Origin: Candidatus Nomurabacteria bacterium
Lineage (GTDB): Bacteria > Patescibacteriota > Minisyncoccia > Phycocordibacterales > UBA9973
Direction of reading: 5' to 3'
Length of the DNA stretch: 64,000 nt
Assembly (NCBI GenBank): GCA_026395955.1
Contig: JAPLXR010000008.1
Location: 5,179 to 69,178 of the forward strand
How positions within the stretch are numbered: position 1 is the stretch's first letter; every line of letters begins with the position of its first letter. The notes below the pieces were generated by a model that saw nothing but the letters and a program-made list of their open reading frames with translations, made no database searches and was not told the origin of the DNA. Positions 1-37,910 of this stretch are shown in pieces. The position numbers and the translations under genes were made by a program.

Positions 1-72
1 GTTCCATTTGTAATTTTTGAATTTAGAGTTCATTCTCCAGTTTTTCGTTCTTTTTCTGAACAAAATTTTAAT

Positions 73-297
73 TTGCTTATTGTTAGTATGAACGCGGGTC
101 TGCTTTTTATGTTCGTTTGTGCAGGCTTAGGTTTACTCTACTTACTTAATGCAAATTTTTCTGCAAATAAGTATTTTAAAATATTTATTATACTAACTGC
201 TTTTATTTCTTTATTAGTTAGTTTAATTTTTATATTTATGTCTCTTGCAGGAGGAACTACTAATTATGGATGTATTATTTTGCAACAATGTAATTAA
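73..297 (+). CDS. hypothetical small hydrophobic protein (doubtful)
   Basis: 74-aa ORF with 2 predicted TM segments, AT-rich. Lacks the ATP synthase c-subunit motifs (no ARQP motif, no carboxylate in helix 2). Confidence 0.25.
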   Translation: MLIVSMNAGLLFMFVCAGLGLLYLLNANFSANKYFKIFIILTAFISLLVSLIFIFMSLAGGTTNYGCIILQQCN

Positions 298-302
298 ATT
301 TT

Positions 303-1238
303 ATGGCATCAACAAAAGAAATCAAAAACCGAATAAAGAGTATCAAGAATACGAAAAAGATCACCAAGGCGATGGAGCTGGTGGCGGCTTCGAAGATGCG
401 TAGAGCGGTTGCGACGACGCTTGCTTCGCGTTCATATGCAGGATACTCTTGGGAACTTTTGACTTCTTTGAGTGGGAAACTCGATGAAGTAAAAAATGTA
501 TTTTTTGAATCTCCAAAAGACGGAAAAACTTTGATCGTCCTCATTACCTCAAACGGCTCCCTCTGCGGCGGCTACAATGCGCAAGCGATCAAGAAAGCGA
601 TGCAGCTTATTAAAGCCCCTCTCCTTAATAAGGAGAGGGGTGGGGGTGAGGTTCTTGTGGACTTTATCTCAATCGGCAAAAAAGGCGACCATGCGATGCG
701 AAAGATTGGGCAGAATATCATCGCCGCATTTACCGATTTGCCAGTAAATATTTCAATACAAAATGTAAATCCTATTTCAGCTCTGATTTTAAATGAATAC
801 AAAAAGGGAACATACAAAGAAGTCTTCGTCGTTTACACCGACTTCGTCTCGGCACTCACGCAAAAGCCGAATGTGAGAAAGTTGCTACCGATCTCCCGTG
901 AAGAACTCAAAGAGTTAATCGAGATCGAGAAGCAGGGAACCTCCCCTGATAAGGGGAGGCAGGAGGGGTTGTATTCTGAAATCCCTTATCTCATCGAAGG
1001 CGATGCGAACAAATTGATAGAAATGCTCGCCGAGAAATTGATCAGGATGCAAGTATACCAAATGCTCCTCGAATCTGGAGCTTCGGAACAGTCGGCCCGA
1101 ATGGTAGCCATGAAGAATGCGAGCGAGGCGGCAGGAGAAATGATCGACAACCTCACCCTCGTATTCAACAAAGCCCGCCAAGCCGGCATCACCCAAGAAA
1201 TTTCAGAAATCAGTGCAGGTATGGCTTCAGTAAGTTAG
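303..1238 (+). CDS. atpG: ATP synthase F1 gamma subunit
   Basis: N-terminus MASTKEIKNRIKSIKNTKKITKAMELVAASKMRRA and C-terminal helix are typical of gamma. 311 aa, about 20 aa longer than usual. GC-rich relative to flanking DNA. Confidence 0.9.
   Translation: MASTKEIKNRIKSIKNTKKITKAMELVAASKMRRAVATTLASRSYAGYSWELLTSLSGKLDEVKNVFFESPKDGKTLIVLITSNGSLCGGYNAQAIKKAMQLIKAPLLNKERGGGEVLVDFISIGKKGDHAMRKIGQNIIAAFTDLPVNISIQNVNPISALILNEYKKGTYKEVFVVYTDFVSALTQKPNVRKLLPISREELKELIEIEKQGTSPDKGRQEGLYSEIPYLIEGDANKLIEMLAEKLIRMQVYQMLLESGASEQSARMVAMKNASEAAGEMIDNLTLVFNKARQAGITQEISEISAGMASVS
616..640. repeat. GC-rich perfect palindrome (12-bp arms) inside atpG coding sequence
   Basis: cccctctcctta-a-taaggagagggg. Encodes APLLNKERGGG in-frame. 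Confidence 0.7.
940..959. repeat. GC-rich perfect palindrome (8-bp arms) inside atpG
   Basis: cctcccct-gata-aggggagg. Encodes TSPDKGRQ. Confidence 0.7.
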
Positions 1239-1263
1239 AAAGATTATAATTAATTAAAAATTT

Positions 1264-1662
1264 ATGGAAGAAAATATTACACAAAAAAATTCAAAATTTA
1301 AATCATTCATGACTGACCCATTGTATGTTTTTGTTATACAGATTGCTTTATTCATACCTATGATTTACTTTGTTATTGCGGGAGCATTTAGTGGAAATGG
1401 TACGCCAGCATATATTTTGGGAACAATAGAATCTATTCTTATTGTATGGGGGTTTATACTTTTTATTATGAATATAGTAAAAGGAACAACAAAAGTTGGA
1501 AAGAAAAATTATTTTGCTTCATTTATTTTATTAGCAACTTTTTGTTTAGGAATATGGAGTGTGGTAAATATGGTGCAATCAAATAAAAGAGCAGATGACT
1601 ATAATCAAAGACAAAGAGATATGGCCAGAGAAAGAGACGCAATTTATTATAAGAATCATTAA
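1264..1662 (+). CDS. hypothetical 3-4 TM membrane protein inserted between atpG and atpD
   Basis: 132-aa ORF with 3-4 hydrophobic helices. About 27% GC, contrasting with the flanking atp genes. An AtpI/AtpZ-like accessory role is possible but unsupported. Confidence 0.5.
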   Translation: MEENITQKNSKFKSFMTDPLYVFVIQIALFIPMIYFVIAGAFSGNGTPAYILGTIESILIVWGFILFIMNIVKGTTKVGKKNYFASFILLATFCLGIWSVVNMVQSNKRADDYNQRQRDMARERDAIYYKNH

Positions 1663-3021
<1,359 letters not shown>

Positions 3022-3029
3022 TTAAAAAT

Positions 3030-3569
3030 ATGGTTGATGAAATACCAAAAATTAATTTTACGAAAAAGGACATTAAACTTTTCCGAGAAAAAAGTGACAA
3101 GTCTTTAGACAAGTCAGTTTTCTCTTTGTCTGAAGAAATAGATAACACTGAATGGCCTTATGGAGAAAAAGTAATGTTTTTATTAGATGAAAGTAAAGAA
3201 CGTATTGGTCAAATTCAATTTAATTATCCAGAAGTAGATGCGAAAGAAAAACTTTTTAAGATAAGAATGATTGCTCTTGATGATAAGTTTAAAAATAAAG
3301 ATTTAGGTATTGTTCTTTATAAAAAACTTATAGATTTAGCAAAGGAAAAAGGTTTTAAAGGAATCAAGAGTGATAATAGTGTTGGTACTGCAGCAAGTGC
3401 GAATTGGAAAAAATTAGCTGATGAAGGGTATGAGTTGATAGTTAATCTTAAAGTTATTGAAAAATATGAAGAGTTTATAAAGACTTATGATGAAGGAAAA
3501 TATTTTATAGGAGGGTTTCAAGTTCCAAAAGAAGAAAGTGTTTTTGAAATAGATTTAAATAAAAAATAA
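3030..3569 (+). CDS. hypothetical protein, possible GNAT-like fold
   Basis: 179-aa AT-rich ORF between atpD and atpC. Weak GNAT-like pattern (KDLGIVLYKKLIDLAKEKGFKGI ... ANWKKLADEGYE). The assignment is tentative. Confidence 0.4.
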   Translation: MVDEIPKINFTKKDIKLFREKSDKSLDKSVFSLSEEIDNTEWPYGEKVMFLLDESKERIGQIQFNYPEVDAKEKLFKIRMIALDDKFKNKDLGIVLYKKLIDLAKEKGFKGIKSDNSVGTAASANWKKLADEGYELIVNLKVIEKYEEFIKTYDEGKYFIGGFQVPKEESVFEIDLNKK

Positions 3570-3570
3570 T

Positions 3571-4014
3571 ATGGCAAAACAATTAAAACTAAAAATAGTC
3601 ACCCCGGAAAAGCTCGTATTAGAAGAGCTTGTTGAGAGCGTGACGTTGCCGACGCTGGAAGGGGAGATCACGATCTTGCCCGAGCACGTGCCGATAATCG
3701 CAGGCCTCAAATCCGGCGATATTGTGGCTCTCGCAAACGGCGAACATATTCCGTATGCAGTCGTTGGGGGTTTTGTGGAAGTAAAAAAGGAGGACGGCAT
3801 GACAACTGTCGCCATCCTTGCCGACTTTGCAGAACACATTGCCGACATCACCGATGAAGCAATCGAGAAAGCAAAAGCCCGCGCAGCAGAGCTCCAGAAA
3901 CTCGCCGAGAACAAAGAAGTCGTAGACTTCGAACACTTTGCAACAGAGCTCGACCGCTCCCTCACTCGCGTCAAAATCGCGGATAAGTGGAAGACTAGAA
4001 AATATAGGAAGTAA
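3571..4014 (+). CDS. atpC: ATP synthase F1 epsilon subunit
   Basis: MAKQLKLKIVTPEK...LPEH...GGF motif typical of epsilon. GC-rich. Confidence 0.9.
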   Translation: MAKQLKLKIVTPEKLVLEELVESVTLPTLEGEITILPEHVPIIAGLKSGDIVALANGEHIPYAVVGGFVEVKKEDGMTTVAILADFAEHIADITDEAIEKAKARAAELQKLAENKEVVDFEHFATELDRSLTRVKIADKWKTRKYRK

Positions 4015-4095
4015 AAATAAGCTAAGCTTCTTTTGGCTGCACTCGAACGATATAAAAATAAATTTTTACTCGCTTCTCATTTGTCAAAATAAAAA

Positions 4096-4129
4096 AACCG
4101 CTCTAATACTTTATGTATTTCGAGCGGTT
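4096..4129 (-). terminator. intrinsic terminator hairpin between convergent atpC and lipoprotein gene
   Basis: aaccgctc/gagcggtt stem with an extended inner stem. A U-tract follows on the minus strand; the plus-strand side is weak. Confidence 0.5.
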
Positions 4130-4151
4130 GTGTGAGCTGGGTTAAGACTCA

Positions 4152-4742
4152 CTAGTCTTTTGGATAATACCTAGTCAGGCTAATGTTGTTGTTTGGTAGA
4201 ACAAATTTTCCATTTCCTATACCTAAGGAAACAATAATAACTTTAGTATTATTTTCACCATTTTTAGAATATTCCGTGATTCTTTTTATCATGGTAACAT
4301 TTTCTGTTTCTTCTAAATAGATTCCATTTAAATGAAATCTATAAGCAGTTAATTTTTTAGTTTTTCTATTTTCTAATAGAACAGCAACACCAGAACGATG
4401 CCTACTCATTCCATAAACAGAAAAGGCGATATTATGATCAGTACCTTTTGCATATCCATAATCTGGGCCATCATTTTGATAAAACCCAAATTTTTCTCCT
4501 TGTAAGTCTTGACCCTTTTGCATACTTAAGTAAATTATTATTTTTTGAATAATTTCAGTTGAATAACTTCCACTGTCTTTTTTTAAACAATTATCTTTCC
4601 AGATAAATGTTCCATCTGTGATGGAAAAAGTTAAATCAGTTTTTTTGTTTACATTTGGATTGTCTTGAATAACAATCTCTTTTCTGTTGCATGCACTTAA
4701 TGTTGCAAAGGTGATCAATATCACCAATATTTTTTTCTTCAT
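4152..4742 (-). CDS. lipoprotein, unknown function
   Basis: Signal peptide plus lipobox (LSAC). 196 aa. Confidence 0.6.
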   Translation of the reverse strand: MKKKILVILITFATLSACNRKEIVIQDNPNVNKKTDLTFSITDGTFIWKDNCLKKDSGSYSTEIIQKIIIYLSMQKGQDLQGEKFGFYQNDGPDYGYAKGTDHNIAFSVYGMSRHRSGVAVLLENRKTKKLTAYRFHLNGIYLEETENVTMIKRITEYSKNGENNTKVIIVSLGIGNGKFVLPNNNISLTRYYPKD

Positions 4743-4838
4743 TTTTAAAGTTCTAAATTGTTTTTGTTTATTTAAATATTAACATATTGTATTAAAAAGT
4801 CAATAATAAAAGAAAAGCTTTTTTGCTATAATCAACAA

Positions 4839-5513
4839 ATGAGTAATTTTTATGTTATAGCGACACCGATAGGTAATATGGAAGACATCACACTTCGCGC
4901 TATTCGTATTCTCGGCGAAGTAGATTTGATTTTGTGTGAAGACACTCGTATGACACAAAAGATTCTAAATAAATATGAAATAAAAAAGGCGACAATGAGT
5001 TATCATGCACAGAGCAAGATCGGTAAGACTGATAAAATATTTGAATTACTTGAAGAAGGAAAAAATATTGCTTTAGTTTCAGATGCAGGCACACCAGGGA
5101 TTTCAGATCCGGGAGCTTTGCTCGTGTCTCAAATAAAAGAAAAGTTTGGTGATAATGTAAATGTTATTCCGATTCCTGGGGCATCAGCAATCATCACAGC
5201 ACTTTCTGCTTGTGGACTTCCAATACATGAATTCACTTTCTTAGGATTTCTTCCGCATAAAAAGGGAAGGGAAACATTGTTTAAGGAAATAGCAGAATCA
5301 GAGAGGACTATAGCTTTCTATGAATCTTCACATCGCATACTTAAAACTCTCGAAGCTTTGGTAAAATTTACACCAAATAAAAAAGTCTGCGTAGCTCGAG
5401 AAATTACTAAAATTTATGAAGAATTTAAAACAGGAACTCCAGCAGAATTGCTCGAATATTACACAAAAAATACAGTAAAACAAAAAGGTGAATTTGTTGT
5501 AATAGTCGCTTAA
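4839..5513 (+). CDS. rsmI: 16S rRNA (cytidine1402-2'-O)-methyltransferase (tetrapyrrole-methylase fold)
   Basis: N-terminus MSNFYVIATPIGNMEDITLRAIRILGEVDLILCEDTR is characteristic of RsmI. Confidence 0.85.
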   Translation: MSNFYVIATPIGNMEDITLRAIRILGEVDLILCEDTRMTQKILNKYEIKKATMSYHAQSKIGKTDKIFELLEEGKNIALVSDAGTPGISDPGALLVSQIKEKFGDNVNVIPIPGASAIITALSACGLPIHEFTFLGFLPHKKGRETLFKEIAESERTIAFYESSHRILKTLEALVKFTPNKKVCVAREITKIYEEFKTGTPAELLEYYTKNTVKQKGEFVVIVA

Positions 5514-5532
5514 TTTGGTATAATAGAAACAT

Positions 5533-5778
5533 ATGAAAAAAGCACGAACATTTTTAATTATAGGTATATGGGTGGCGATATTGCCATACCTCGGTTTTCC
5601 ATATAGTTGGAAACAAATCATTTCTACTCTTACAGGTTTAGGTATAATGTATTTCGCATATATGATTTACAAGAAAGAAAAACTCGATATGAAAAATGTA
5701 GAATCAGCTAATTTTGATACTTCTTCTGAATATCGAAATGATGATTATGCTCAAGATAATTTTAGACCTAGAATTTAG
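5533..5778 (+). CDS. small membrane protein
   Basis: 81 aa, 2 TM. Confidence 0.4.
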   Translation: MKKARTFLIIGIWVAILPYLGFPYSWKQIISTLTGLGIMYFAYMIYKKEKLDMKNVESANFDTSSEYRNDDYAQDNFRPRI

Positions 5779-6996
5779 ATGATAAAAAAATTCTTGAATC
5801 AAAAACAAAATCCTTATGTAATACTAGCCGTAGTAGGATTTTTTATATTAGGAATTTTAATAGGTCAAAGTAAAACTCCGGAGATAGATAAAGTTGATAT
5901 AAAAAATAAAGAAGTTTCTGTAGATACTCGTGCTGATTTTGCACCTTTTTGGAAAGCTTGGAATACTATTAATGAAAAAAATCCTGATGCTAAAAAAATT
6001 TCAGATCAAGATAAAATATATGGAGCGATAAAAGGTTTAGCCGGTTCTTTAGATGATCCATATACTACTTTTTTTAGTCCAGATGAAGCTAAGCTTTTTG
6101 AAGACGATATTGCTGGATCTTTTTCTGGTATTGGAATGGAAGTAGGTATTAAAGATAAAATACTTACAGCTATTTCTGCTCTTAAGGATACACCTTCATA
6201 TAAAGCGGGAATAAAACCAGGAGATAAAATTTTAAAAATTGATAAAAAAATTACAACTGATTTAACGATCGAGCAAGCAGTCAAATTAATTCGTGGAGAA
6301 AAAGGTACACCTGTGAGTATAACTATTTTCCGTGAAGGAGAAAAAGAACCACGAGAAATAAAAATGATTCGTGACACTATCAATGCTCCTACGATAGACA
6401 CAGAAATGCGTAAAGATGGAATTTTTGTTATTACTTTGTATAGTTTTTCTGCAAACTCTGCTCAGCTTTTCCGTGATGCTTTGAAAAAATTTGCTGATTC
6501 AGGAAGTTATAAATTAGTTTTTGATTTACGTGGTAATCCAGGAGGATATTTAGATGCGGCTATTGATATGGCTAGTTTCTTTTTACCTGCTGATCAAAGA
6601 GTTGTTACAGAAGATTATGGTGGAAATAAAAAACCGAATATTTATTTTAGTAAAGGTTATAATGTTTTCAATGACAAATTAAGATTTGTTGTGTTGATAG
6701 ATGGTGGTTCTGCTTCTGCTTCTGAAATTTTCGCAGGTGCAATGCAAGACAACCATAGAGCAAAATTAGTAGGAGAGCAGAGTTATGGAAAAGGATCTGT
6801 TCAAGAAGTTATTAGTTTAACTCCAGATACTGTACTCAAGGTCACTGTTGCAAAATGGTTAACTCCAAATGGAACTTCAATTTCTAAAAAAGGACTTACC
6901 CCAGACTATATAGTACCTTTTACTATTAAAGATGCTAAGGCAAAAATAGACCCACAAATGAATAAAGCCGCCCTATTGTTAAATAATTGGAAATAA
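5779..6996 (+). CDS. ctpA: C-terminal processing peptidase S41 with PDZ domain
   Basis: N-terminal TM. PDZ segment (GIKPGDKILKIDKK). S41 core with catalytic Ser in GGSASASEIFAGAMQD...KGSVQ. Confidence 0.85.
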   Translation: MIKKFLNQKQNPYVILAVVGFFILGILIGQSKTPEIDKVDIKNKEVSVDTRADFAPFWKAWNTINEKNPDAKKISDQDKIYGAIKGLAGSLDDPYTTFFSPDEAKLFEDDIAGSFSGIGMEVGIKDKILTAISALKDTPSYKAGIKPGDKILKIDKKITTDLTIEQAVKLIRGEKGTPVSITIFREGEKEPREIKMIRDTINAPTIDTEMRKDGIFVITLYSFSANSAQLFRDALKKFADSGSYKLVFDLRGNPGGYLDAAIDMASFFLPADQRVVTEDYGGNKKPNIYFSKGYNVFNDKLRFVVLIDGGSASASEIFAGAMQDNHRAKLVGEQSYGKGSVQEVISLTPDTVLKVTVAKWLTPNGTSISKKGLTPDYIVPFTIKDAKAKIDPQMNKAALLLNNWK

Positions 6997-7010
6997 TCTA
7001 ATATAAAAAT

Positions 7011-7454
7011 ATGAAAGTAATATTCTTAAAAGACGTACCACGAGTAGGACGCAGAAATGATGTTAAAGATGTAAATGATGGTTACGCTAGTAATTTCTTG
7101 TTCCCAAAGAAATTCGCAGAACCAGCGACACCTAAAGCATTAGCTCAATTAGAAGCAAAGAAAAATTCAGTGCTTTTAGATAATAAAATTCAAGAAGAAT
7201 TGATATTGAAGAGTTTGGCTGATATAAAGAATATTGTTGTAAATATTTCAGGTAAAGCTAATGACAAGGGTCATTTATTTTCTGCAATTCATAAAAAAGA
7301 AATAATTGAATCACTAAAAACAAATCATAAAGCAGAAATTACCGAAGATTTTATTGTCCTAGATAAACCACTAAAAGAAGTAGGGGAGTTTGAAATTGGA
7401 GTTGAAATAAAACATCATAAATCTAGTTTCAAGGTAATAATCACAAAAGCTTAA
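7011..7454 (+). CDS. rplI: 50S ribosomal protein L9
   Basis: MKVIFLKDVPRVGRRNDVKDVNDGYASNFLFP matches the L9 N-domain. Confidence 0.9.
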   Translation: MKVIFLKDVPRVGRRNDVKDVNDGYASNFLFPKKFAEPATPKALAQLEAKKNSVLLDNKIQEELILKSLADIKNIVVNISGKANDKGHLFSAIHKKEIIESLKTNHKAEITEDFIVLDKPLKEVGEFEIGVEIKHHKSSFKVIITKA

Positions 7455-7523
7455 TTTTGACAAATAGGTCTAAGATGTGCTAAACTATGAGGAGTTTAGT
7501 TTTTTACAATTTAATTTTAATAA

Positions 7524-7952
7524 ATGAAAAAAGAAGACATAGAAACGATAGCAACAGTTATTTTTTGCAGTAATTCAAAGAAGTACTTTCAAAGTATTGT
7601 TAATTATTTGGAATATAAAAATTTTCCATTTAAAATTATCACAACAAACAATGCAGATAATGCGTTGTGTGCTGTGCCAGAAAATGAAAAATGTATTTTA
7701 TTAACAGAAGCATTAATTCCTGGAAAAATTCCTGTAAAAAGGGGAACAGATAGAGTTTTAAATTTAGCTAAAAATGCTAAGTCAAAAAATATTAATTGTT
7801 TTTTGATACTTTATACTGTGGCCCCAGGATTGATTGAAAAGGATGAAGTTCATTTATTTGATGAAATTTTTGATATTAAATCAAAAGATTCATGTAGTAT
7901 AGTAAAACAAAAATTTTTAGAGTTTTCTCAGCAGGCAATCTTGTTGAAGTAA
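7524..7952 (+). CDS. hypothetical protein
   Basis: 142-aa ORF. A weak receiver-like alpha/beta pattern was noted; it is not diagnostic. Confidence 0.45.
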   Translation: MKKEDIETIATVIFCSNSKKYFQSIVNYLEYKNFPFKIITTNNADNALCAVPENEKCILLTEALIPGKIPVKRGTDRVLNLAKNAKSKNINCFLILYTVAPGLIEKDEVHLFDEIFDIKSKDSCSIVKQKFLEFSQQAILLK

Positions 7953-7960
7953 AACAAAAA

Positions 7961-7986
7961 GTCCCGAAATTAATCGGGACTTTTTT
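7961..7986. terminator. bidirectional intrinsic terminator
   Basis: gtcccga-aattaa-tcgggac followed by T6. An A-run upstream would serve the minus-strand rpmA. Confidence 0.6.
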
Positions 7987-7999
7987 ATTTGTATTTTAT

Positions 8000-8272
8000 T
8001 TAGATTACGTTTACAACTTTCTTTACTGCAGTTTTTCCGTTGAATGAAGTTTTGCGTGTGCGTCCGAATTTTACCGTACCGTCTTTGAGAGCGAAGAGAG
8101 TGTGATCTTTACCCATTGATACATTTGTACCAGCGAGGATAACTGTACCTCTTTGGCGGATAATTATAGATCCTGCTTGAGCTTTTTCACCATCATAAAG
8201 CTTCGTACCGAGGTACTGTGGATTAGAGTCTTTTAAGTTGGAGGCGGTTCCGCCGGCTTTTCTATGTGCCAT
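8000..8272 (-). CDS. rpmA: 50S ribosomal protein L27
   Basis: [29 protein letters not shown] is an L27 signature. Confidence 0.9.
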
Positions 8273-8291
8273 TGCTTTATTTTTTAATTAA

Positions 8292-8753
8292 ATGATAAAA
8301 TATTCGTATAGGAAGAGTATAAACCATCTTATGGAAAAAATCAAGTCTTTTATTGACGATAAAATACTAAGTGAAAAGGGAAAAGACATTCTCATAATTT
8401 TAATCGTTGTTTTAGTTGGTTTAGGCTCATTTATACTAGGTAGACTATCAAATAAGGCTCAAAATGGTCAATTTAAGGTCGAAAATAGCTCAAATCAGGC
8501 AAATGCTCTAAATGGCCTAGAAAATGCTCAAAATAGCCAAAATGAGCCAAATATAGCTCAAAAAAGTACTATAAATACAGTTATAAATAATTCTAATAAA
8601 TCTGGAAATTTTTTCGCATCCAGTCGGGGGAAGAAGTATTATCCAGTTGGTTGTTCTGCTGGTAATACTATCAAGGAATCAAATAAAATATATTTTAACA
8701 CTGGGGAAGAGGCTCAAAGTGCTGGTTATGAGCTTTCTAGTAGCTGTCATTAG
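8292..8753 (+). CDS. membrane-anchored protein with low-complexity N/Q-rich linker and C-terminal Cys-containing ~40-aa module
   Basis: TM at residues ~33-50. NSQNEPN-type low complexity. C-terminus KKYYPVGCSAGNTIKESNKIYFNTGEEAQSAGYELSSSC. Confidence 0.5.
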   Translation: MIKYSYRKSINHLMEKIKSFIDDKILSEKGKDILIILIVVLVGLGSFILGRLSNKAQNGQFKVENSSNQANALNGLENAQNSQNEPNIAQKSTINTVINNSNKSGNFFASSRGKKYYPVGCSAGNTIKESNKIYFNTGEEAQSAGYELSSSCH

Positions 8754-8888
8754 AATAGGTACTACGTCGCACAATATATCTTTTCGGTATGGTATATACT
8801 ATAAAGATAAGTAAAATAAGGCTTGATAAATTGGTTCTTCTGATATAGTATTCAATTAAACAAAGTTCTAATTTAATTAAATATTATT

Positions 8889-9722
8889 ATGAAAAGAAAT
8901 GCTCAACGTCAAAGAGATGCAGTAATAGCTGCTGATGAATTAAGAAATAAATTTAATTTAAAAAAAGATTCAAATCCAATTGGTATTATTTTGGGTACTG
9001 GTTGGGGTGATAAATTGATTCTTGATAATCCATCTACCCCTGTCCCCTTTAAAGATGTTTTTGGGTTAAAGCACTTAACTCCTGGACCTGAGGGTCATAA
9101 AAGAGAATTCCAACATGGATTTATTGAAGACAAAGAAATTTTAGTTTTAAATGGAAGAATTCATTTAAATGAAGATCCAACAGATTCAAATATTCCTAAA
9201 TTGGCAAGATTGCAAGTTGAAATTCTAATGCAATTAGGAGTAAAGAAATTAATTGTTACTTGTGCTGCTGGTGCATTACCTGAAAGTGGTTTTGAAACTG
9301 GAGAATTAGCTATTATTGATAGCTTTATGAGTTTATTGGGTCCACCAATGCCTTTATGGGCTGGTGAATTTGTTTCTCCAGAAGATATTTTATCTGAAGA
9401 ATTAATTCAAATTGCACTAAAACAAACTGTTACATACGGTCCAATAAAAAAAGCGTGTTATGCAATGTTGCTCGGTCCTGATTTTGAAGGTCGCAAAAAA
9501 GACAAACAAGCATTAAGAATGCTCGGAGCTGATATTGTCGGCATGAGCGTTAGACCCGAGACGTGTATTGCAGCTTTGTATCCTGATACACAAGTATTAG
9601 CCGTAGCTTTTATCTCTAATGATTCAATTGAAACTCATTCTCACGAAGAGAATATGAAAAGAGCAAATGAATCATCTGAAAAACTTGGAGTGTTTCTAAA
9701 AAATATAATGAAAGAAATATAA
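8889..9722 (+). CDS. purine nucleoside phosphorylase / MTAP family (PNP family I)
   Basis: IILGTGWGD, GRIHLNED (cf. GRFHYYEG) and VGMSVRPE (cf. GMSTVPE). Confidence 0.75.
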   Translation: MKRNAQRQRDAVIAADELRNKFNLKKDSNPIGIILGTGWGDKLILDNPSTPVPFKDVFGLKHLTPGPEGHKREFQHGFIEDKEILVLNGRIHLNEDPTDSNIPKLARLQVEILMQLGVKKLIVTCAAGALPESGFETGELAIIDSFMSLLGPPMPLWAGEFVSPEDILSEELIQIALKQTVTYGPIKKACYAMLLGPDFEGRKKDKQALRMLGADIVGMSVRPETCIAALYPDTQVLAVAFISNDSIETHSHEENMKRANESSEKLGVFLKNIMKEI

Positions 9723-9730
9723 AAAAATAA

Positions 9731-9752
9731 GAAGTCCGAAAGGACTTCTTTT
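9731..9752. terminator. bidirectional terminator between convergent genes
   Basis: gaagtcc-gaaa-ggacttc plus T4. Flanked by an A-run on the other side. Confidence 0.6.
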
Positions 9753-10368
9753 AATTTTTATATTCGGTTATTTTACCCATCTCTATTTCTATTTTGTCAG
9801 CCTTACGAAGATTTTTTATTTTATTAGGTAAAATATTAAAATGTTTACTTTTATTTAATTCCCTATCAATCATCCATAAATCTTTTTCATAATTAATCCA
9901 ATCAGTCTTTATTTTATTTAAATTTAAAATTTCTGAATATTTACGAAGAGTTTTTGTTCCATTATTTAAAAAATATTCATGAAAATAAGACATTACAAGC
10001 TCACGTATATCTCTATATATTGGTTCACGATACCTCAAAACCCCATGATTGGTCTTTGATAATGCGCCCCAATATCCATTTTCTTTGAATGGAGCTATAA
10101 CATGATCACTATCATAATCTTTCTTATTTTTAGTTGATTGTAAATACAAAAGTAATGGTTCATAACTATGCAAAGATAATATATATGCACCAAGCAGTGC
10201 ACCTTCAAAACAATGAGCATTATTTTCTCTTAATGTTCGAATTGGAGATTTTATTGTATCTATTTTATTTTTTTCAAAATTAAAAGGAATAGAATTTAAA
10301 AAATCTTGTACTTTTGCTGGAGTATTTAATTTTTTTAATAAACTTATTTCTTTTTTTGTGAAAGACAT
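9751..10368 (-). CDS. hypothetical protein with putative Cys-His-Asp (transglutaminase/NAT-like fold) motifs
   Basis: AHCFEGALLGAYIL, then SDHVIAPF, then a downstream Asp. Tentative. Confidence 0.45.
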   Translation of the reverse strand: MSFTKKEISLLKKLNTPAKVQDFLNSIPFNFEKNKIDTIKSPIRTLRENNAHCFEGALLGAYILSLHSYEPLLLYLQSTKNKKDYDSDHVIAPFKENGYWGALSKTNHGVLRYREPIYRDIRELVMSYFHEYFLNNGTKTLRKYSEILNLNKIKTDWINYEKDLWMIDRELNKSKHFNILPNKIKNLRKADKIEIEMGKITEYKN

Positions 10369-10369
10369 T

Positions 10370-10678
10370 TTAGTGTATCTGTAGAGGTACTGTTAAATTT
10401 TGGCCAACTTCGTTAAAAATTGTTGGTTGTCCATCATGAATTTTTTGCATATTTTCTAAAAAAGCATTCCAAAAAAAATTAACAGGATGTTGCAAATATT
10501 GATTCCAAAAATTAATTAATGAAGTTTGTATTTGATGATAAGTATTTATTACTTGATCATTAATAAAAATAGCTTGTAGGTCTATATGTAAGTATTCTTT
10601 TAAAATAACAAAAATAAATATAGCGAGAACTATCGCGCCCAATATACTGACAGCACCTTTTTTGTATTTATTTTTCAT
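10370..10678 (-). CDS. small membrane protein
   Basis: 102 aa, one N-terminal TM. Confidence 0.45.
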   Translation of the reverse strand: MKNKYKKGAVSILGAIVLAIFIFVILKEYLHIDLQAIFINDQVINTYHQIQTSLINFWNQYLQHPVNFFWNAFLENMQKIHDGQPTIFNEVGQNLTVPLQIH

Positions 10679-10687
10679 TAAATTATT

Positions 10688-10822
10688 TTAAATAATACTA
10701 TGAAACATACCAGCGAACCAATTGAAAATACCAGTGAGCGTTAAACCAAAATAATGCATTAGGAATACTACTACAACGATAAATATTATTAATTGGAGGA
10801 AACCACCTTGTTGATTTTTCAT
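10688..10822 (-). CDS. possible 44-aa hydrophobic miniprotein (not in ORF track)
   Basis: The reverse complement reads ATG...MKNQQGGFLQLIIFIVVVVFLMHYFGLTLTGIFNWFAGMFHSII*. It lies between annotated genes. Confidence 0.3.
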   Translation of the reverse strand: MKNQQGGFLQLIIFIVVVVFLMHYFGLTLTGIFNWFAGMFHSII

Positions 10823-10860
10823 ATGATTAAATTTTAACATATTTTTAATATATAAGACAA

Positions 10861-12156
10861 TTATTTATATGATGGTAAATAATACATAGGATCTAAATAG
10901 GCATTAATAGCTGCTATTGGTTGAGTTAGATTTTTGCCAGGACAAGATTTACTAGGTAAAGTTTTCATTTCTACTGCATCTTTTGGATACATTGAAACAT
11001 GTAAATGTGGGCCGGTAGAATAACCCGAATTACCACTATAACCTACTACTTCACCTCTCGACACCCTCTCTCCTATTGAAACTTTTATTAAAGAAAGGTG
11101 GCCATAAGTACTAGCCAAACCATTATCATATTTTATTAGAATTAGTTTGCCGAAAGATACACCTTTACATTGTAGATCTGTATCGTTTGTACCTGCTACT
11201 ACACCATCAGCCATAGCTTTGACTGGAGTACCAATAGCTGCACGAAAATCAGTTCCATTGTGTGTTCCACTTGCATACAAACGTGTTGAACCTTCTGTTT
11301 TTCCAAACATTTGTGTTACATAAACATTATCAAGAGGCCAAGAAAGAACACCTTTCCCTGGTAATTTTTTTGGATCGAGAATGTATTTTAATTGAGATTC
11401 ATAATTTCTAATATCAGCTTCAAATGCATCTTTTTTTGCTAATCTATCTTTTAATAAGATTTGATAATTAGCTTCATTATTTTTTGTGTCAGCTAAAAGT
11501 TTCTTTTTTTCTGCTGTATTTTGATCTACTATTTTTTTTTGATCAGCAAGTTTTGTTTTTAGTGCTACTAGTTCATTTCTAGCATCAGTGGTAACTTTTT
11601 TAGTGTCTTCTAAATCATTTTTTGTTTTTTGTAATTCTTTTGTTCTAGTCCTTATTTTTTCTTGAATTGTTGAAATATTATCTATATCATTCCAAATATC
11701 AGAAAAATTATTTTCTGATATTAATATTTCTGGTATTGAATTTAATTCAACTTCATTTATGTTTTTTAATTCTAATTTTATAGCTTCAGTATTATTTGTT
11801 ATAGAATCTTGCTTGTCTCCAATCTGAGAACTTAAAGTATTTATTTTAGAATTTGTATTTTCAATCTTTTTTTGAGTTACAGAAATATTTGCAGTAAGTT
11901 GTTTTTTACTTAAATCTAGTTGTTGTAAAGATACATTTAATGAATCTTTTTGTTTACTTAAATCATTTAATTGGTTATTAAATGATTTAATCTCTTTTTC
12001 TAGATTAGCTATGTCGTTGTTACGTTGATTAATTTGATTTTGTAAATCTTCAGCTGTTTGAGCGTATATTTGTATGTTTGTGCATACAAAAAACCCTAAA
12101 ATAATAAAACTGAATATTAATTTATAAAGCTTTTTGTAATCTAGATAATGTTTCAT
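10861..12156 (-). CDS. M23 family peptidase with N-terminal coiled coil (EnvC/LytM-like)
   Basis: Signal peptide, long coiled coil, then HNGTDF...GHLSLI...GPHLH M23 motifs. Confidence 0.85.
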   Translation of the reverse strand: MKHYLDYKKLYKLIFSFIILGFFVCTNIQIYAQTAEDLQNQINQRNNDIANLEKEIKSFNNQLNDLSKQKDSLNVSLQQLDLSKKQLTANISVTQKKIENTNSKINTLSSQIGDKQDSITNNTEAIKLELKNINEVELNSIPEILISENNFSDIWNDIDNISTIQEKIRTRTKELQKTKNDLEDTKKVTTDARNELVALKTKLADQKKIVDQNTAEKKKLLADTKNNEANYQILLKDRLAKKDAFEADIRNYESQLKYILDPKKLPGKGVLSWPLDNVYVTQMFGKTEGSTRLYASGTHNGTDFRAAIGTPVKAMADGVVAGTNDTDLQCKGVSFGKLILIKYDNGLASTYGHLSLIKVSIGERVSRGEVVGYSGNSGYSTGPHLHVSMYPKDAVEMKTLPSKSCPGKNLTQPIAAINAYLDPMYYLPSYK

Positions 12157-35918: not shown

Positions 35919-37910
35919 TTATTCTAAAATTTTTAGCAAGACGTCTTCGGGAACTTCTTTGATTTGAGGTTTAGATTGTTCCCCTCCTTGTTGAGGAGGG
36001 GTGGCTTTAGCTGGGGTGGTGGCTTCTGTTTTCTGCGCAATAAAATCTTTAAATTTATTCATGTCATCACTACTAGCACCTTTATCTTTTGGAAAATTAT
36101 TTGGTAAAGGATTAGTTTGACCTTTTAATGAATTTAATGAAATTGAAGGCTGAGGCTGAACAACTTTTTCTTCTTTCAATGTTTCCGAAAGAGCTTTATT
36201 TAAAATATCTTTCAAAGCATTATTTTGAGACATTGGTCTTTGAATATTTTGTATTGGTTGTTGTTGTGGAGCTGGTTTAAATACTTTTGGTTCTACTGGT
36301 GGAGTTGGAGCTTTATATACTGGTTTAAAAGTTGTTTGTGTAGGTTGTTGTACAGGAGCAGGTGGAGTAATTATTGGTGCTTTTATTTCTTTCTTTTCTT
36401 CTAGAGGTTTCGGTGCGACATATGGTAAAGGCTTGATTGTACCTTCTTTCATTTTAGCAATACAGTCTTTACAATACACAGGTCGTCCTGCTTCTGGTTT
36501 GAATGGAACCAAAGTATCTTTACCACAGATAGAACATTTAACTGGGAATTGTTCTACATCTTTATTTCCCTTTGGAGCTGTCGCGGCTGAAAGATTTAAA
36601 AACATTCCACTCCATTCACTGATTTCTTTTTCAACAATTTCTCTAGGGCGAGCATAAAGTTTTCTAGAGATATCTATAACTTCTTGTTCTGTTTGTAAGT
36701 TTCTCTTTGTAATCATCGGTGGTAATGTGCGTGCAGAAAATGGACGACTTGTTACGCCATCGATCATAAGTTTCAAATAAATTCTATAGTTTGGAAGACT
36801 TACGATATCTTGAGCCATAAATTCTGGTTCGAATTCTTTTTCTAAAAAGTCTGCATCTTCAGCACCAACACGAAATACAATCATAGTTCCGACGTTACCG
36901 AAAACAGCATCACGCACAGCTGAACCATTTGCAGAAACGAGTTGAGCAGTGTATTGGTGTGCAACCGTTAGATTTAAACGGTATTTTCGAGCTTCAGAAA
37001 GAATGTTTGCAAAAGAATCTGTTACGAAGTTTTGGAATTCGTCTACATATAAATAAAAGTCTTTACGTTGATCTTCAGCAATACGTACACGCTCCATCGC
37101 TGCGAGTTGGATTTTTGTAATAAGCATACCTCCGAGCAATGCTGAATTATCTTCACCGATACGTCCCTTCGAAACGTTCACGAGGAAAATTTTCTTCTCG
37201 TTCATAATATCAAAAAGATTGATTGTACTTTTTGATTGACCGACAACATTACGCACAATAGAACTTGAGAGAAATTGTCCGACTTTATTTTGAATAGGTG
37301 TAATAGCTTCATTACGGAATTTGTCTTGCCAAGTATCATATTCATTTACCCAAAAACCTTTTACGATAGGATCTTTGATATTATCAACAATTGTTTTTCT
37401 ATATGGTTTATCTACGAGCATACGAGTCACACCGAGGAGTGTCGTGCCAGGAGTTTCAAGCAATGCCAAAATAGCATTGTTCAAAATATATTCCATACGA
37501 GCAGACCAAACATTCGCCCAGATCTTCGTAAAGATTCCCATGAGTCCTGAAGCTACGAGATGTTTGTATTGAGGATCGACGAGTTCGAGAACATTTAACC
37601 CAATATGATAATCAGTATCAGCTGGATTGAAATATACAACGTCTTGCATTCTATGTGGAGGAATACTAGAAACAATATCTTCTACGAGTTCACCGTGAGG
37701 ATCGACAACACAAACACCTTCACCATTGATGATGTTTTGCATAACCATATTTGTCATAAAAGCAGATTTACCTGTTCCTGATTTTCCTAGAATATATACG
37801 TGCTGTCTGCGATCTTTTCTTTTAATACCAAAAAGCTGATTTTTATTTCTAAATGTTGTTTCACCTAGATATGTGATATCTTTATTTTCTGGGAATTGTA
37901 TTGGATCCAT
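35919..37910 (-). CDS. FtsK/HerA/TrwB(VirD4)-superfamily P-loop ATPase with C-terminal CxxC...CxxC zinc ribbon and Pro/Gln-rich tail
   Basis: Walker A GKSGTGKSAF. VVDPHGE (cf. TrwB/HerA DPxGE). Walker B FYLYVDEFQNF. HQ motif. Zinc ribbon VKCSICGKDTLVPFKPEAGRPVYCKDCIAK. No TM. Likely start at MDPIQ (37910); the track start is 37940. Confidence 0.75.
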   Translation of the reverse strand: MDPIQFPENKDITYLGETTFRNKNQLFGIKRKDRRQHVYILGKSGTGKSAFMTNMVMQNIINGEGVCVVDPHGELVEDIVSSIPPHRMQDVVYFNPADTDYHIGLNVLELVDPQYKHLVASGLMGIFTKIWANVWSARMEYILNNAILALLETPGTTLLGVTRMLVDKPYRKTIVDNIKDPIVKGFWVNEYDTWQDKFRNEAITPIQNKVGQFLSSSIVRNVVGQSKSTINLFDIMNEKKIFLVNVSKGRIGEDNSALLGGMLITKIQLAAMERVRIAEDQRKDFYLYVDEFQNFVTDSFANILSEARKYRLNLTVAHQYTAQLVSANGSAVRDAVFGNVGTMIVFRVGAEDADFLEKEFEPEFMAQDIVSLPNYRIYLKLMIDGVTSRPFSARTLPPMITKRNLQTEQEVIDISRKLYARPREIVEKEISEWSGMFLNLSAATAPKGNKDVEQFPVKCSICGKDTLVPFKPEAGRPVYCKDCIAKMKEGTIKPLPYVAPKPLEEKKEIKAPIITPPAPVQQPTQTTFKPVYKAPTPPVEPKVFKPAPQQQPIQNIQRPMSQNNALKDILNKALSETLKEEKVVQPQPSISLNSLKGQTNPLPNNFPKDKGASSDDMNKFKDFIAQKTEATTPAKATPPQQGGEQSKPQIKEVPEDVLLKILE
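35981..36001. repeat. GC-rich palindrome (7-bp arms) inside the ATPase gene tail
   Basis: cccctcc-ttgttga-ggagggg. Encodes PPQQGG on the minus strand. Confidence 0.65.

Follow-up and report, generated by a model that had tools for sequence, protein, structure and literature searches.

Candidate intrastrand triplex motifs in frame within loops of the ATP synthase gamma-subunit gene of a Candidatus Nomurabacteria bacterium

Three-armed repeats in atpG and in a coupling-protein-like gene

The window, i.e. the whole 64-kb stretch of DNA that was analysed (GC content 32%), harbors the atpG gene, whose product is 100% identical to protein P0001, annotated as 'ATP synthase F1 subunit gamma [Candidatus Nomurabacteria bacterium]' (PF00231), and aligns with solved gamma subunits over its full length. 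An earlier note on this DNA had pointed to two perfect palindromes within this ORF, and both were recovered: positions 616-640 read CCCCTCTCCTTA-A-TAAGGAGAGGGG with arms of 12 bp, and positions 940-959 read CCTCCCCT-GATA-AGGGGAGG with arms of 8 bp. As likewise claimed, they are in frame, and they are evidently translated as the AtpG loop peptides given in Table 1. A search of the window for GC-rich perfect inverted repeats (GC at least 50%, arms at least 8, loop at most 8) yielded only these two and a third one at positions 35981-36001. The latter is located in the low-complexity C-terminal tail of a T4SS coupling-protein-like gene, the product of which combines a TrwB/TraG/VirD4-type ATPase with a treble-clef zinc finger and this tail; the host gene reads the repeat in reverse orientation (...TTPAKATPPQQGGEQ...).

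The pattern CCYCYCC-N1-9-GGRGRGG matched the window 3 times as compared to 0.0 times in 300 dinucleotide-preserving shuffles, and atpG 2 times, while 2000 shuffles of this gene gave 0.0005 on average. The motifs of the window are thus far more frequent than chance would allow. Nearest-neighbour folding of the hairpin part only of each motif gave ssDNA energies of -12.4 kcal/mol (z = -4.8) for TM1, -9.3 (z = -3.4) for TM2 and -9.5 kcal/mol for TM3.

Each palindrome makes up just two of the three arms of a larger unit; the remaining arm had been overlooked in the earlier note. In TM1 and TM2, this G/T-rich arm starts after a spacer of 2 nucleotides and mirrors the purine arm, with G corresponding to G and A to T or A. 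Judged from the sequence, this mirror relation follows the code by which the strands of an antiparallel purine-motif triple helix pair. Moreover, a structural scan for a perfect homopurine hairpin of at least 6 bp with a mirror arm of at least 6 within 30 nt returned three sites in the window (11/11, 8/8 and 8/8 triplets) and 0 in 30 Markov shuffles. The stems and loops measure 11 bp/3 nt in TM1, 8 bp/4 nt in TM2 and 8 bp/5 nt in TM3, all perfect and with homopurine 3′ arms. All three copies lie inside ORFs and keep the reading frame. Since they have three different stems, there is no sign of a recent amplification in this genome.

Table 1. Positions of the triplex motifs (TM), their parts and their host genes in the window
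Feature	Position	Strand	Remark
atpG, ATP synthase F1 gamma subunit, 311 aa	303..1238	+	ORF; host of TM1 and TM2
Triplex motif 1 (TM1)	616..653	+	11-bp stem, 11/11 mirror triplets; codes for aa 105-117, APLLNKERGGGEV
TM1 pyrimidine arm CCCCTCTCCTT	616-626	+	
TM1 loop AAT	627-629	+	
TM1 purine arm AAGGAGAGGGG	630-640	+	
TM1 spacer TG	641-642	+	
TM1 reverse-Hoogsteen/mirror arm GGGGTGAGGTT	643-653	+	
Triplex motif 2 (TM2)	940..969	+	8-bp stem, 8/8 triplets; within codons 213-223, TSPDKGRQEGL
TM2 pyrimidine arm CCTCCCCT	940-947	+	
TM2 loop GATA	948-951	+	
TM2 purine arm AGGGGAGG	952-959	+	
TM2 spacer CA	960-961	+	
TM2 mirror arm GGAGGGGT	962-969	+	
Triplex motif 3 (TM3)	35981..36020	+	8/8 triplets; host gene on - strand
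TM3 pyrimidine arm CCCCTCCT	35981-35988	+	
TM3 loop TGTTG	35989-35993	+	
TM3 purine arm AGGAGGGG	35994-36001	+	
TM3 spacer, 11 nt	36002-36012	+	
TM3 mirror arm GGGGTGGT	36013-36020	+	
T4SS coupling-protein-like gene, 673 aa	35919..37940	-	ORF; PF10412, PF02534, PF12696, PF23477

Presence, absence and turnover in the AtpG loops

TM1 is present in P0001-4 and missing from orthologues that are 85-93% identical; L002 and L325 lack it and contain CAAGATACTACAAAAGAAATA at that site. In loop 1, 45 nucleotides stand in place of 21 unrelated nucleotides of a 93%-identical allele, and in loop 2 the net change is +6 nucleotides. The elements replace sequence instead of merely adding to it. The earlier note had regarded the length of 311 aa as consistent with two insertions of about 10 aa each. 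This argument holds only approximately: the solved bacterial gamma subunits comprise 282-290 aa, and the net gain over the nearest element-free orthologues (301 aa) is only 8 aa in loop 1 and 2 aa in loop 2. The alignment nevertheless places both palindromes on lineage-specific indels in variable AtpG loops, as had been anticipated. The loop 2 region is an insertion of 17-18 aa relative to the solved gammas, and the AF2 pLDDT of AtpG falls below 50 only at residues 1-3, 110-114, 150-152 and 198-232, of which 110-114 lies in the TM1 peptide and 198-232 covers that of TM2.

Loop 2 holds differing family members in either orientation (L001, L004, L005/L006, L007), including near-identical TM2 units at the same loop of L007, the protein of which is 63% identical, and another member occupies loop 1 of L008. 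In L004, loop 2 differs from the window by one extra C, G and G, that is, by one more C:G:G triplet across all three arms. TM1 is identical in L001 and L004. Among three related genomes, its 35-37 nucleotides show 0 differences (P = 0.005-0.024 per pair), while 10-14% of the sites and 24-35% of the third positions of their atpG genes differ. The TM1 nucleotides are thus conserved beyond the surrounding gene. A perfect motif was present in 1 of 80 more distant atpG relatives, which rules out atpG as a general hot spot.

Neither a target duplication nor a clean insertion junction was found in the atpG alleles or around the five copies of phage contig L012. Insertion as such would be only one possible history, because the filled and empty alleles differ by replacement and share no junction or target duplication, and because L001/L325 represents a recombination mosaic. 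Moreover, an ancient element with repeated loss would yield a similar pattern of presence and absence.

Both the length and the sequence of the loops are hypervariable, and the same loop of L007 contains other, non-homopurine palindromes. This would be compatible with loops that were selected as protein, or born of local quasi-palindrome or template-switch mutation, the palindromy being incidental. However, the conserved nucleotides include synonymous sites, the frame and the orientation in which this DNA unit is translated vary between sites, and the shuffles exclude chance. In addition, the elements are not a fold-back copy of local sequence, because the empty allele has neither arm, and a fold-back or template-switch origin is thereby ruled out. 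We regard an origin in protein selection or local mutation as scarcely credible and as already largely refuted.

Third-arm covariation and distribution of the family

The covariation of the arms was followed in copies picked by the hairpin alone, using a scan of IMG/VR that gave 136 matches, 125 of them perfect palindromes. The asymmetric arm GGAGGGG (n = 46) was accompanied by the mirror arm GGGG[AT]GG nearby in 42 of the 46 cases and by the direct version in 0; the full 9-nt mirror was found next to 35 of the 46, as compared to 0 direct. In control segments 150-350 nt off, a third-arm match occurred in 1 of 262. The arm types GGAGAGG, GGGGAGG and GGGGGGG each come with their own matching third arm, and the three-arm covariation is seen across more than 100 independent copies. 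Many of the viral copies have longer second spacers, often with a small extra hairpin.

Taxonomic spread and coding or intergenic placement were taken from a census of genome contigs, the pattern of which contained the third arm and therefore cannot test covariation. In ordinary bacteria the majority of the copies proved to be intergenic, the 'coding' count being inflated by open frames in GC-rich genomes. The E. coli element was recovered independently, at a median of 18 places per genome and with the unit CCCCTCTCCCTGAGGGAGAGGGTTAGGGTGAGGG. In related Paceibacteria, in-frame members are located in atpD (L254) and a TP-methylase-like ORF (L261); a further one lies in atpG of L292, and in phage L012 they are found in the terminase linker and the MuF protein. 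The unit is translated in varying frames and orientations (...RG.GGEV, ...GEG.GVR, reverse-strand peptides). The atpG palindromes are thus members of a family of short, GC-rich, dispersed repeats, in-frame copies of which occur in further genes.

The earlier note had compared the palindromes to the Rickettsia palindromic elements (RPEs; Ogata et al. 2000), which reportedly comprise about 100-150 bp and occur only in Rickettsia, in frame in housekeeping genes. A part of this comparison stands: like the RPEs, the palindromic repeats in atpG and the other genes lie in frame at variable, permissive surface positions, here in housekeeping genes, and are translated. Moreover, relatives differ by presence or absence, and single phage contigs contain many near-identical copies (5 in 7.3 kb of L012, 10 in 15 kb of L112), as might be expected of a transposable palindrome that is itself the whole functional unit and inserts in frame into housekeeping genes. 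However, the units of the window are only 30-40 nt long, neither atpG site is a clean insertion of ~10 aa, and neither a target duplication nor a clean junction marks the copies, the majority of which are intergenic in ordinary bacteria. In addition, a palindrome alone leaves the non-palindromic mirror third arm unexplained, an arm that is not known from the RPEs. Mobile-element behaviour is inferred from the distribution, no target-site duplication having been seen. With the third-arm covariation, the interpretation as RPE-like mobile elements is already weakened, and we consider it unlikely.

The hairpins could alternatively act in the mRNA of the atp operon, as a stability barrier, an RNase site or a translational pause that tunes the gamma stoichiometry, the DNA triplex potential being irrelevant. 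Stable GC-rich hairpins in an AT-rich genome, the sense-strand orientation of both atpG copies and the resemblance of the arms to anti-SD and SD sequences are in line with such a function. However, the mirror (Hoogsteen) code of the third arm has no meaning for RNA pairing, and purine-motif triplexes are not formed in RNA (cited in PMC4666352). The orientation towards the gene varies, L001 loop-2b, L005/L006 and TM3 being reversed, and close orthologues manage without the elements. Likewise, PIT elements, which share this arm order, show no promoter or terminator activity (PMC4666352). At gathering thresholds, no Rfam family matched the window, and at E<=1 nothing relevant was detected in L118, L012, L005, L071, L112 and L004; a known structured RNA was rejected on this ground. 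A role in the mRNA is thus decidedly improbable. The related idea of an SD/anti-SD sequestration, suggested by the likeness of the arms to CCTCCTT and AAGGAGG, was dropped, since it does not accommodate the subtypes CCTCTCC, CCCCCCC and CCCTCNCCC and since the third arm is mirror-coded.

Relation to known repeats and proposed explanation

The GC clusters of yeast mitochondria are tiny GC-rich hairpin repeats of an AT-rich genome and can sit in coding sequence (var1), and very small dispersed repeats (SDR) have reportedly been described in cyanobacteria (Elhai et al. 2008). Both resemble the window motifs as tiny GC-rich hairpin repeats of AT-rich genomes that can be inside coding sequence or replace sequence without target duplication; unlike the window motifs, they have other hosts and sequences and are not known to carry a triplex arm. 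REPs are likewise short GC-rich imperfect palindromes which, as REP/REPIN, occur in many dispersed, strain-variable copies, mobilised by RAYT transposases (Bertels & Rainey 2011, PMC3116915). In contrast to the in-frame copies of the window, they are extragenic, carry a conserved 5′ tetranucleotide, depend on RAYT and lack a third mirror arm.

The closest match is the class known as BoxC (Bachellier et al., 1990s), PIT elements (Hoyne/Maher 2000), and TMECO and other ITxF motifs (Holder et al. 2015, PMC4666352), in which class II motifs are defined by the order pyrimidine, purine and reverse-Hoogsteen arm (PMC4666352). Arm order and triplet code are common to the window motifs and this class, as are a G/C-rich composition, dispersal in many bacterial phyla and local indel variation, with no linked transposase noted; none is reported near TMECO, the loci of which are more rearranged between E. 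coli strains (PMC4666352). TM1, TM2 and TM3 all contain the first stem of ITxF/PIT elements (pyrimidine-rich stem, 1-6-nt loop, homopurine 6-15 nt) and a complete reverse-Hoogsteen stem, although the 8 triplets of TM2 and TM3 are near the lower end of the non-random range of ITxF. The second loop comprises 2 nt in TM1 and TM2 and 11 nt in TM3, as compared to the ITxF limit of 1-6 nt. The three window motifs do not follow the strict TMECO/BoxC consensus: their stems are CCCCTCTCCTT/AAGGAGAGGGG, CCTCCCCT/AGGGGAGG and CCCCTCCT/AGGAGGGG instead of TMECO CCCTCNCCC, and the host is an AT-rich CPR bacterium. The most notable difference is that the window copies are in frame inside protein-coding genes, whereas TMECO in E. 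coli is 'always located intergenically' and not found on phages (PMC4666352).

TMECO, CCCTCNCCC-N3-6-GGGNGAGGG-N3-GGGNGAGGG, forms a stable triplex in vitro as judged by CD and NMR (PMC4666352). At least four G-tracts in the purine and third arms, for example GGAGAGGGGTGGGGGTGAGG at positions 632-651, might also permit a G-quadruplex or a hairpin/G4 switch in place of the triplex. However, a G4 does not need the position-by-position mirror of A to T/A, and the NMR imino spectra of TMECO favoured the triplex and not a G4 (PMC4666352). We consider this fold very improbable.

Taken together, the atpG palindromes probably represent the hairpins that Watson-Crick pairing would form in a pair of class II intrastrand purine-motif triplex motifs (BoxC/PIT/TMECO kind), both in frame in coding sequence. 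The unit would be a DNA repeat of ~30-40 nt in which a pyrimidine arm is followed by its complementary purine arm and then by a third arm rich in G and T; in ssDNA, this third arm would fold back antiparallel to the purine arm via G·G-C, T·A-T and A·A-T triplets. By analogy with TMECO, the window copies are expected to adopt this triplex. They may have come into the loops as DNA-level elements, selfish or structural, and not for the peptide, and may persist because loops tolerate length changes. Movement between alleles would occur chiefly by homologous recombination, and the elements might add to local indel hypervariability, as at TMECO loci. Because the copies keep the reading frame, they would be read through as loop peptides rich in Pro, Leu, Lys, Glu, Arg and Gly.

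The literature on intrastrand triplex motifs dates from the 1990s to 2015; in the work on E. coli, they were strictly intergenic, and phages had none. The family gains new hosts and a further genomic niche by the in-frame copies, which are found in essential genes of CPR bacteria and in packaging genes of phages. At a single site, natural alleles with the element, without it or with another one in its place allow the three-arm covariation to be read against a coding background, so that selection on DNA structure can be tested directly. Moreover, the elements offer a concrete explanation for part of the lineage-specific loops rich in Gly, Pro, Arg and Glu that CPR and phage proteins contain. 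Caution is called for in the annotation and structure prediction of such loops. More tentatively, the triplex motifs could be, or recently have been, a copy-generating DNA element that colonises permissive coding loops where intergenic space is scarce, as in CPR bacteria and phages, and that, while it is translated, is maintained by selection on the three-stranded fold of its DNA. If true, triplex motifs would represent a so far unrecognised source of loop insertions and indel hypervariability in essential genes (atpG, atpD, terminase).

The palindromes of the window and their third arm

Two GC-rich perfect palindromes described inside atpG in an earlier note both exist, exactly where it had placed them. 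An inverted-repeat scan of the window, which has a GC content of 32% (perfect arms of at least 8 nt, loop of at most 8 nt, GC of at least 50%), returned these two, a third at 35981-36001 and no others. Likewise, the motif of the earlier note, CCYCYCC-N1-9-GGRGRGG, matched three times in the window and never in 300 dinucleotide-preserving shuffles, and inside atpG there are two matches, where 2000 shuffles of that gene alone average 0.0005. When folded as single-stranded DNA, the hairpins of the three elements (TM1, TM2 and TM3) reached -12.4, -9.3 and -9.5 kcal/mol, respectively, and 0, 0 and 1 of 200 shuffles folded as well. Chance is excluded by the shuffle and folding tests, and the palindromic feature of atpG is real. 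All three elements lie in frame inside genes.

Coordinates of the window motifs and of in-frame motifs in relatives and in a phage fragment
Feature	Position	Strand	Description
Window atpG (ATP synthase gamma subunit, 311 aa)	303..1238	+	First gene; 100% identity to a Candidatus Nomurabacteria-named protein
TM1 palindrome	616-640	+	CCCCTCTCCTTA-A-TAAGGAGAGGGG; perfect inverted repeat in atpG
TM1 third arm	643-653	+	Purine arm AAGGAGAGGGG, spacer TG, third arm GGGGTGAGGTT; 11/11 triplets
TM2 palindrome	940-959	+	CCTCCCCT-GATA-AGGGGAGG; perfect inverted repeat in atpG
TM2 third arm	962-969	+	Purine arm AGGGGAGG, spacer CA, third arm GGAGGGGT; 8/8 triplets
TM3 palindrome	35981-36001	+	CCCCTCCT-TGTTG-AGGAGGGG; perfect inverted repeat
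TM3 third arm	36013-36020	+	Purine arm AGGAGGGG, 11-nt spacer, third arm GGGGTGGT; 8/8 triplets
T4SS coupling-protein-like gene (673 aa)			TM3 in low-complexity C-terminal tail; Pfam TrwB/TraG/T4SS-DNA_transf and zinc finger
L254 atpD (beta subunit), related Paceibacteria	4248-4302		In frame; reads DDLPPLSSPPKLGGEGSARGGRLPIHRKAP where the window has an 18-aa segment
L261 237-aa ORF, related Paceibacteria metagenome contig	6205-6242		In-frame motif, peptide PLSLSRRGVGGEV
L292 atpG			One motif
L012 terminase			Motif read as PLSFPRRGAGGEV; linker between two terminase domains
L012 MuF protein			Motif read as PLSLPRRGDGGEV

The hairpin-only pattern CCYCYCCTT-NNN-AAGGRGRGG was then scanned against IMG/VR and yielded 136 matches on 109 stretches, 125 of them perfect palindromes, where chance agreement at the degenerate positions would give about one quarter. 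Some contigs harbor several copies: five in 7.3 kb (L012), ten in 15 kb (L112) and at least six on one contig of 23.6 kb. In the oriented copies one flank is conserved and co-varies with the arm. Thus, arm AAGGAGAGG is followed by GGGTGAGGTT, AAGGAGGGG by GGGGTGGTT or GGGGAGGT, AAGGGGAGG by GGTGGGGTT or GGAGGGGTT, and AAGGGGGGG by GGGGGGGTT; in every arm type the conserved flank corresponds to the reversed purine arm, with G unchanged and A given as T or A. Among the 46 copies with the asymmetric arm GGAGGGG, 42 had a mirror within 30 nt and none a direct version, and the full 9-nt version was found in 35 copies as mirror versus 0 as direct repeat; control segments 150-350 nt away gave 1/262. 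Neither Watson-Crick pairing nor recognition by duplex-binding proteins gives a mirror relation any meaning; an antiparallel purine-motif triple helix (G*G-C, T*A-T, A*A-T) uses just such a code. TM1, TM2 and TM3 all conform to it, and a scan for a perfect homopurine hairpin with a mirror arm retrieved only these three in the window and nothing in 30 Markov shuffles. The previous description as short repeat elements in frame at loop indels holds in outline; it had overlooked the third arm.

In addition, IMG/VR contains a subfamily (L028, L064, L086, L103, L048, L077 and others) with an extra small hairpin between the purine and third arms, as in AAGGAGGGG-tggcagccgcttcggctgac-GGGGTGGTT. Its loop is often of the CTTCGG- or GTCA-type, and the extra stem shows compensatory changes across copies.

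Motif turnover at two loops of AtpG

Relatives of AtpG are 293-328 aa long; solved gamma subunits comprise 282-290 aa in most bacteria. In the protein alignment, APLLNKERGGGEVL at loop 1, which holds TM1, is confined to the window protein and its relatives (P0001-P0004), and orthologues that are 80-86% identical by BLAST have a QDTTKE-like loop 1. Loop 2, harboring TM2, is the most variable stretch: some relatives contain a block of ~30 aa (PPLLNKEGNEGRF...PLLVKERG), PPPRLSGTPPQAGGDE...KEGAGGG is common to P0017 and the distant P0043 (66% identical), and P0066 reads PPLDKGRTEEG. In the DNA of nine relatives, extra loop residues always coincide with a GC-rich hairpin, perfect or nearly so, whose sequence varies. 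Compared with solved gammas, loop 2 has 17-18 inserted residues, and at loop 1 a few residues are gapped. In line with the proposal that prompted the comparison, the palindromes are located at lineage-specific indels in variable loops, as indicated by the alignment, the DNA of the nine relatives and the solved structures. The AlphaFold2 model is of modest quality (mean pLDDT 62); given their residue ranges, its segments below 50 (residues 1-3, 110-114, 150-152 and 198-232) coincide with loops 1 and 2, except for the N-terminus and 150-152. Chloroplast and mycobacterial gammas are likewise longer, and their extra residues probably lie in the loop 2 region.

In P0013 (307 aa), columns ~91-97 of alignment A1 reveal a third lineage-specific insertion site, DLPAQAGG, which follows aa ~73 in the window protein. 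Judging from the peptide, one might guess at a CCTGCC...GGCAGG-type palindrome in the coding DNA.

TM1 is identical across 35-37 nt in the window and the loci L001 and L004, whereas elsewhere in these atpG genes 10-14% of all positions and 24-35% of third positions differ; the probability of no differences by chance is 0.005-0.024 per pair. At loop 2, the unit of the window (CCTCCCCT/AGGGGAGG/GGAGGGGT) recurs nearly unchanged in L007, encoding a 63%-identical protein (TCCTCCCCTT/AAGGGGAGGA/AGGAGGGGT), and L004 differs by one extra C, G and G across the three arms (CCTCCCCCTTA/TAAGGGGGAGG/GGAGGGGGT). L001 contains two units with their third arms face-to-face, and a near-identical double unit occurs in both L005 and L006 despite diverged flanks. 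In L008 (77%-identical protein), loop 1 reads CCCTCTC-ATTGCCAG-GAGAGGG-CA-GGGTGAG. Where L001 has 45 nt with TM1, the 93% identical L325 has 21 unrelated nt, and loop 2 of the window is just two codons longer than that of the motif-free L002; in these two pairs a clean insertion relation between filled and empty alleles was not found, and no target duplication was visible among the alleles compared. L001 (10001-10984) and L325 (3001-3960) are mosaic, with a diverged 5' third and nearly identical 3' two-thirds. The 5' third of L325 resembles a motif-free allele and the remainder, including the double loop 2 motif, resembles L001, so that L325 atpG looks like a recombinant. As shown by these allele comparisons, members of the family are turned over and exchanged at two permissive loops, with the unit conserved at the nucleotide level.

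Other palindromes were observed in L007 (Paceibacterota, encoding P0066): loop 1 carries a near-perfect palindrome of 37 nt (10328-10364) that is non-homopurine and not a triplex motif, and a DNA-alkylation-repair gene contains perfect palindromes of 35 nt (13000-13034) and 25 nt (13126-13150). Therefore, other palindrome families also lie within coding sequence in such genomes.

The atp operon of the window (1-4014) is a compositional mosaic. The atp genes form GC-rich islands (atpG 45.7%, atpD 49.9%, atpC 49.8% GC; GC3 49-57%), and the ORFs between them, at 73-297 (74 aa), 1264-1662 (132 aa) and 3030-3569 (179 aa, weak GNAT match), have 27-28% GC and a GC3 of 16-19%. Among relatives, such intercalated ORFs vary in size (423 aa in L001, 162 aa in L002, 180 aa in L004) or are missing, as in L007. 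Cumulative GC skew peaks near 10-11 kb and then falls steadily, indicating a strand-composition switch at ~10000-11000, which marks a replication landmark or else reflects altered gene orientation.

Copies in other genes, phages and ordinary bacteria

Applied to 389 kb of metagenomic sequence (80 atpG relatives, each with flanks of 3 kb), a strict motif scan yielded 11 motifs, including those in L254, L261 and L292; further ones are intergenic pairs. AtpD of L254 comprises 464 aa versus 449 aa in the window (+15 aa), and the L261 ORF is, by our own reading, presumably a TP-methylase/RsmI-like gene. L012 from IMG/VR is a genuine piece of a Mu-like phage, as shown by Terminase_6N/6C, Portal_Mu and Phage_Mu_F, and the motif reading in its terminase linker represents an insertion of ~26 aa relative to 50%-identical homologues. 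About one fifth of the viral copies are located in long open frames, in both orientations; because the forward third arm GGGTGAGG has TGA in one frame, the readings ...G-GEV and ...GVR recur.

Such translated hairpins could be read as an RPE-type transposon, in keeping with the analogy drawn in the earlier note, as an mRNA hairpin, as a G-quadruplex or as the product of selection on the protein. Each of these readings is contradicted by the covariation of the third arm, by the variable orientation or by the reuse of the same DNA independent of frame.

The IMG/VR contig L112 contains ten poly-C/poly-G-type motifs (CCCCCCCTT-CGC-AAGGGGGGG plus GGGGGGGT) within 15 kb (4070-11352). Three are spaced by 198 nt (8485, 8683, 8881) and lie, together with one at 9094, in a single 357-codon open frame, which suggests a repeated protein unit of ~66 aa with one motif each.

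An enterobacterial repeat with the same layout was used as query and found in 5409 of 5426 E. coli genomes, at a median of 18 places in each; Rfam holds no model matching it. Between lldD and trmL (L118, 1400-1540), an inverted pair ~60 nt apart (CCCCTCACCCCGGCCCTCTCCCC... and ...CCCCTCTCCCTGAGGGAGAGGGTTAGGGTGAGGGG) is devoid of annotation in RefSeq records. The repeat is known as BoxC, PIT element or TMECO, with the consensus CCCTCNCCC-N3-6-GGGNGAGGG-N3-GGGNGAGGG, and class II motifs run from a 5' pyrimidine domain through a purine domain to a reverse-Hoogsteen domain (Holder et al. 2015, PMC4666352). According to the same study, the 23 copies in MG1655 are 'always located intergenically' and TMECO was not found on transposons, phages or plasmids; CD and NMR show that it folds into a stable triplex in vitro, between-strain rearrangement is more frequent at its loci than at control sites, and RNA does not adopt the purine-motif triplex. 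The window elements agree in their stems and third arms with the definition of the class II intrastrand triplex motif, the 11-nt spacer of TM3 lying outside its 1-6 nt range for the second loop, but not with the TMECO consensus; they belong to an already described kind.

When the GGAGAGG subtype with third arm was scanned over one genome per species, at least 120 stretches were obtained, the hosts among those listed comprising Planctomycetota, Chloroflexota, Cyanobacteria, Bacteroidota, Proteobacteria, Acidobacteriota, Verrucomicrobiota, Bifidobacterium, Omnitrophica and others. An open frame extending 60 codons to either side surrounds 34% of the listed stretches versus 71% of random positions, and therefore GGAGAGG-type elements in ordinary bacteria are mostly intergenic.

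A DNA-level reading

Taken together, the best-supported reading is that the triplex motifs are DNA-level elements rather than peptide modules or mRNA signals, with the predicted three-arm fold as the probable conserved property. The strand carrying the pyrimidine, purine and Hoogsteen arms would fold whenever single-stranded, for example during replication, in transcription bubbles or upon DNA uptake. For the E. coli relatives the fold has been physically demonstrated, and it is associated with local rearrangement and with in vitro polymerase stops (literature including PMC4666352). With little non-coding DNA, the surviving copies would be those in loops tolerating extra Gly/Pro/Glu/Arg-rich residues, and gamma loop 2 may be one such place. 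Coding and phage copies contrast with the published E. coli picture ('always intergenic, not on phages'), and what is new is the context, namely that essential genes of a CPR bacterium, and also phage genes, contain translated copies.
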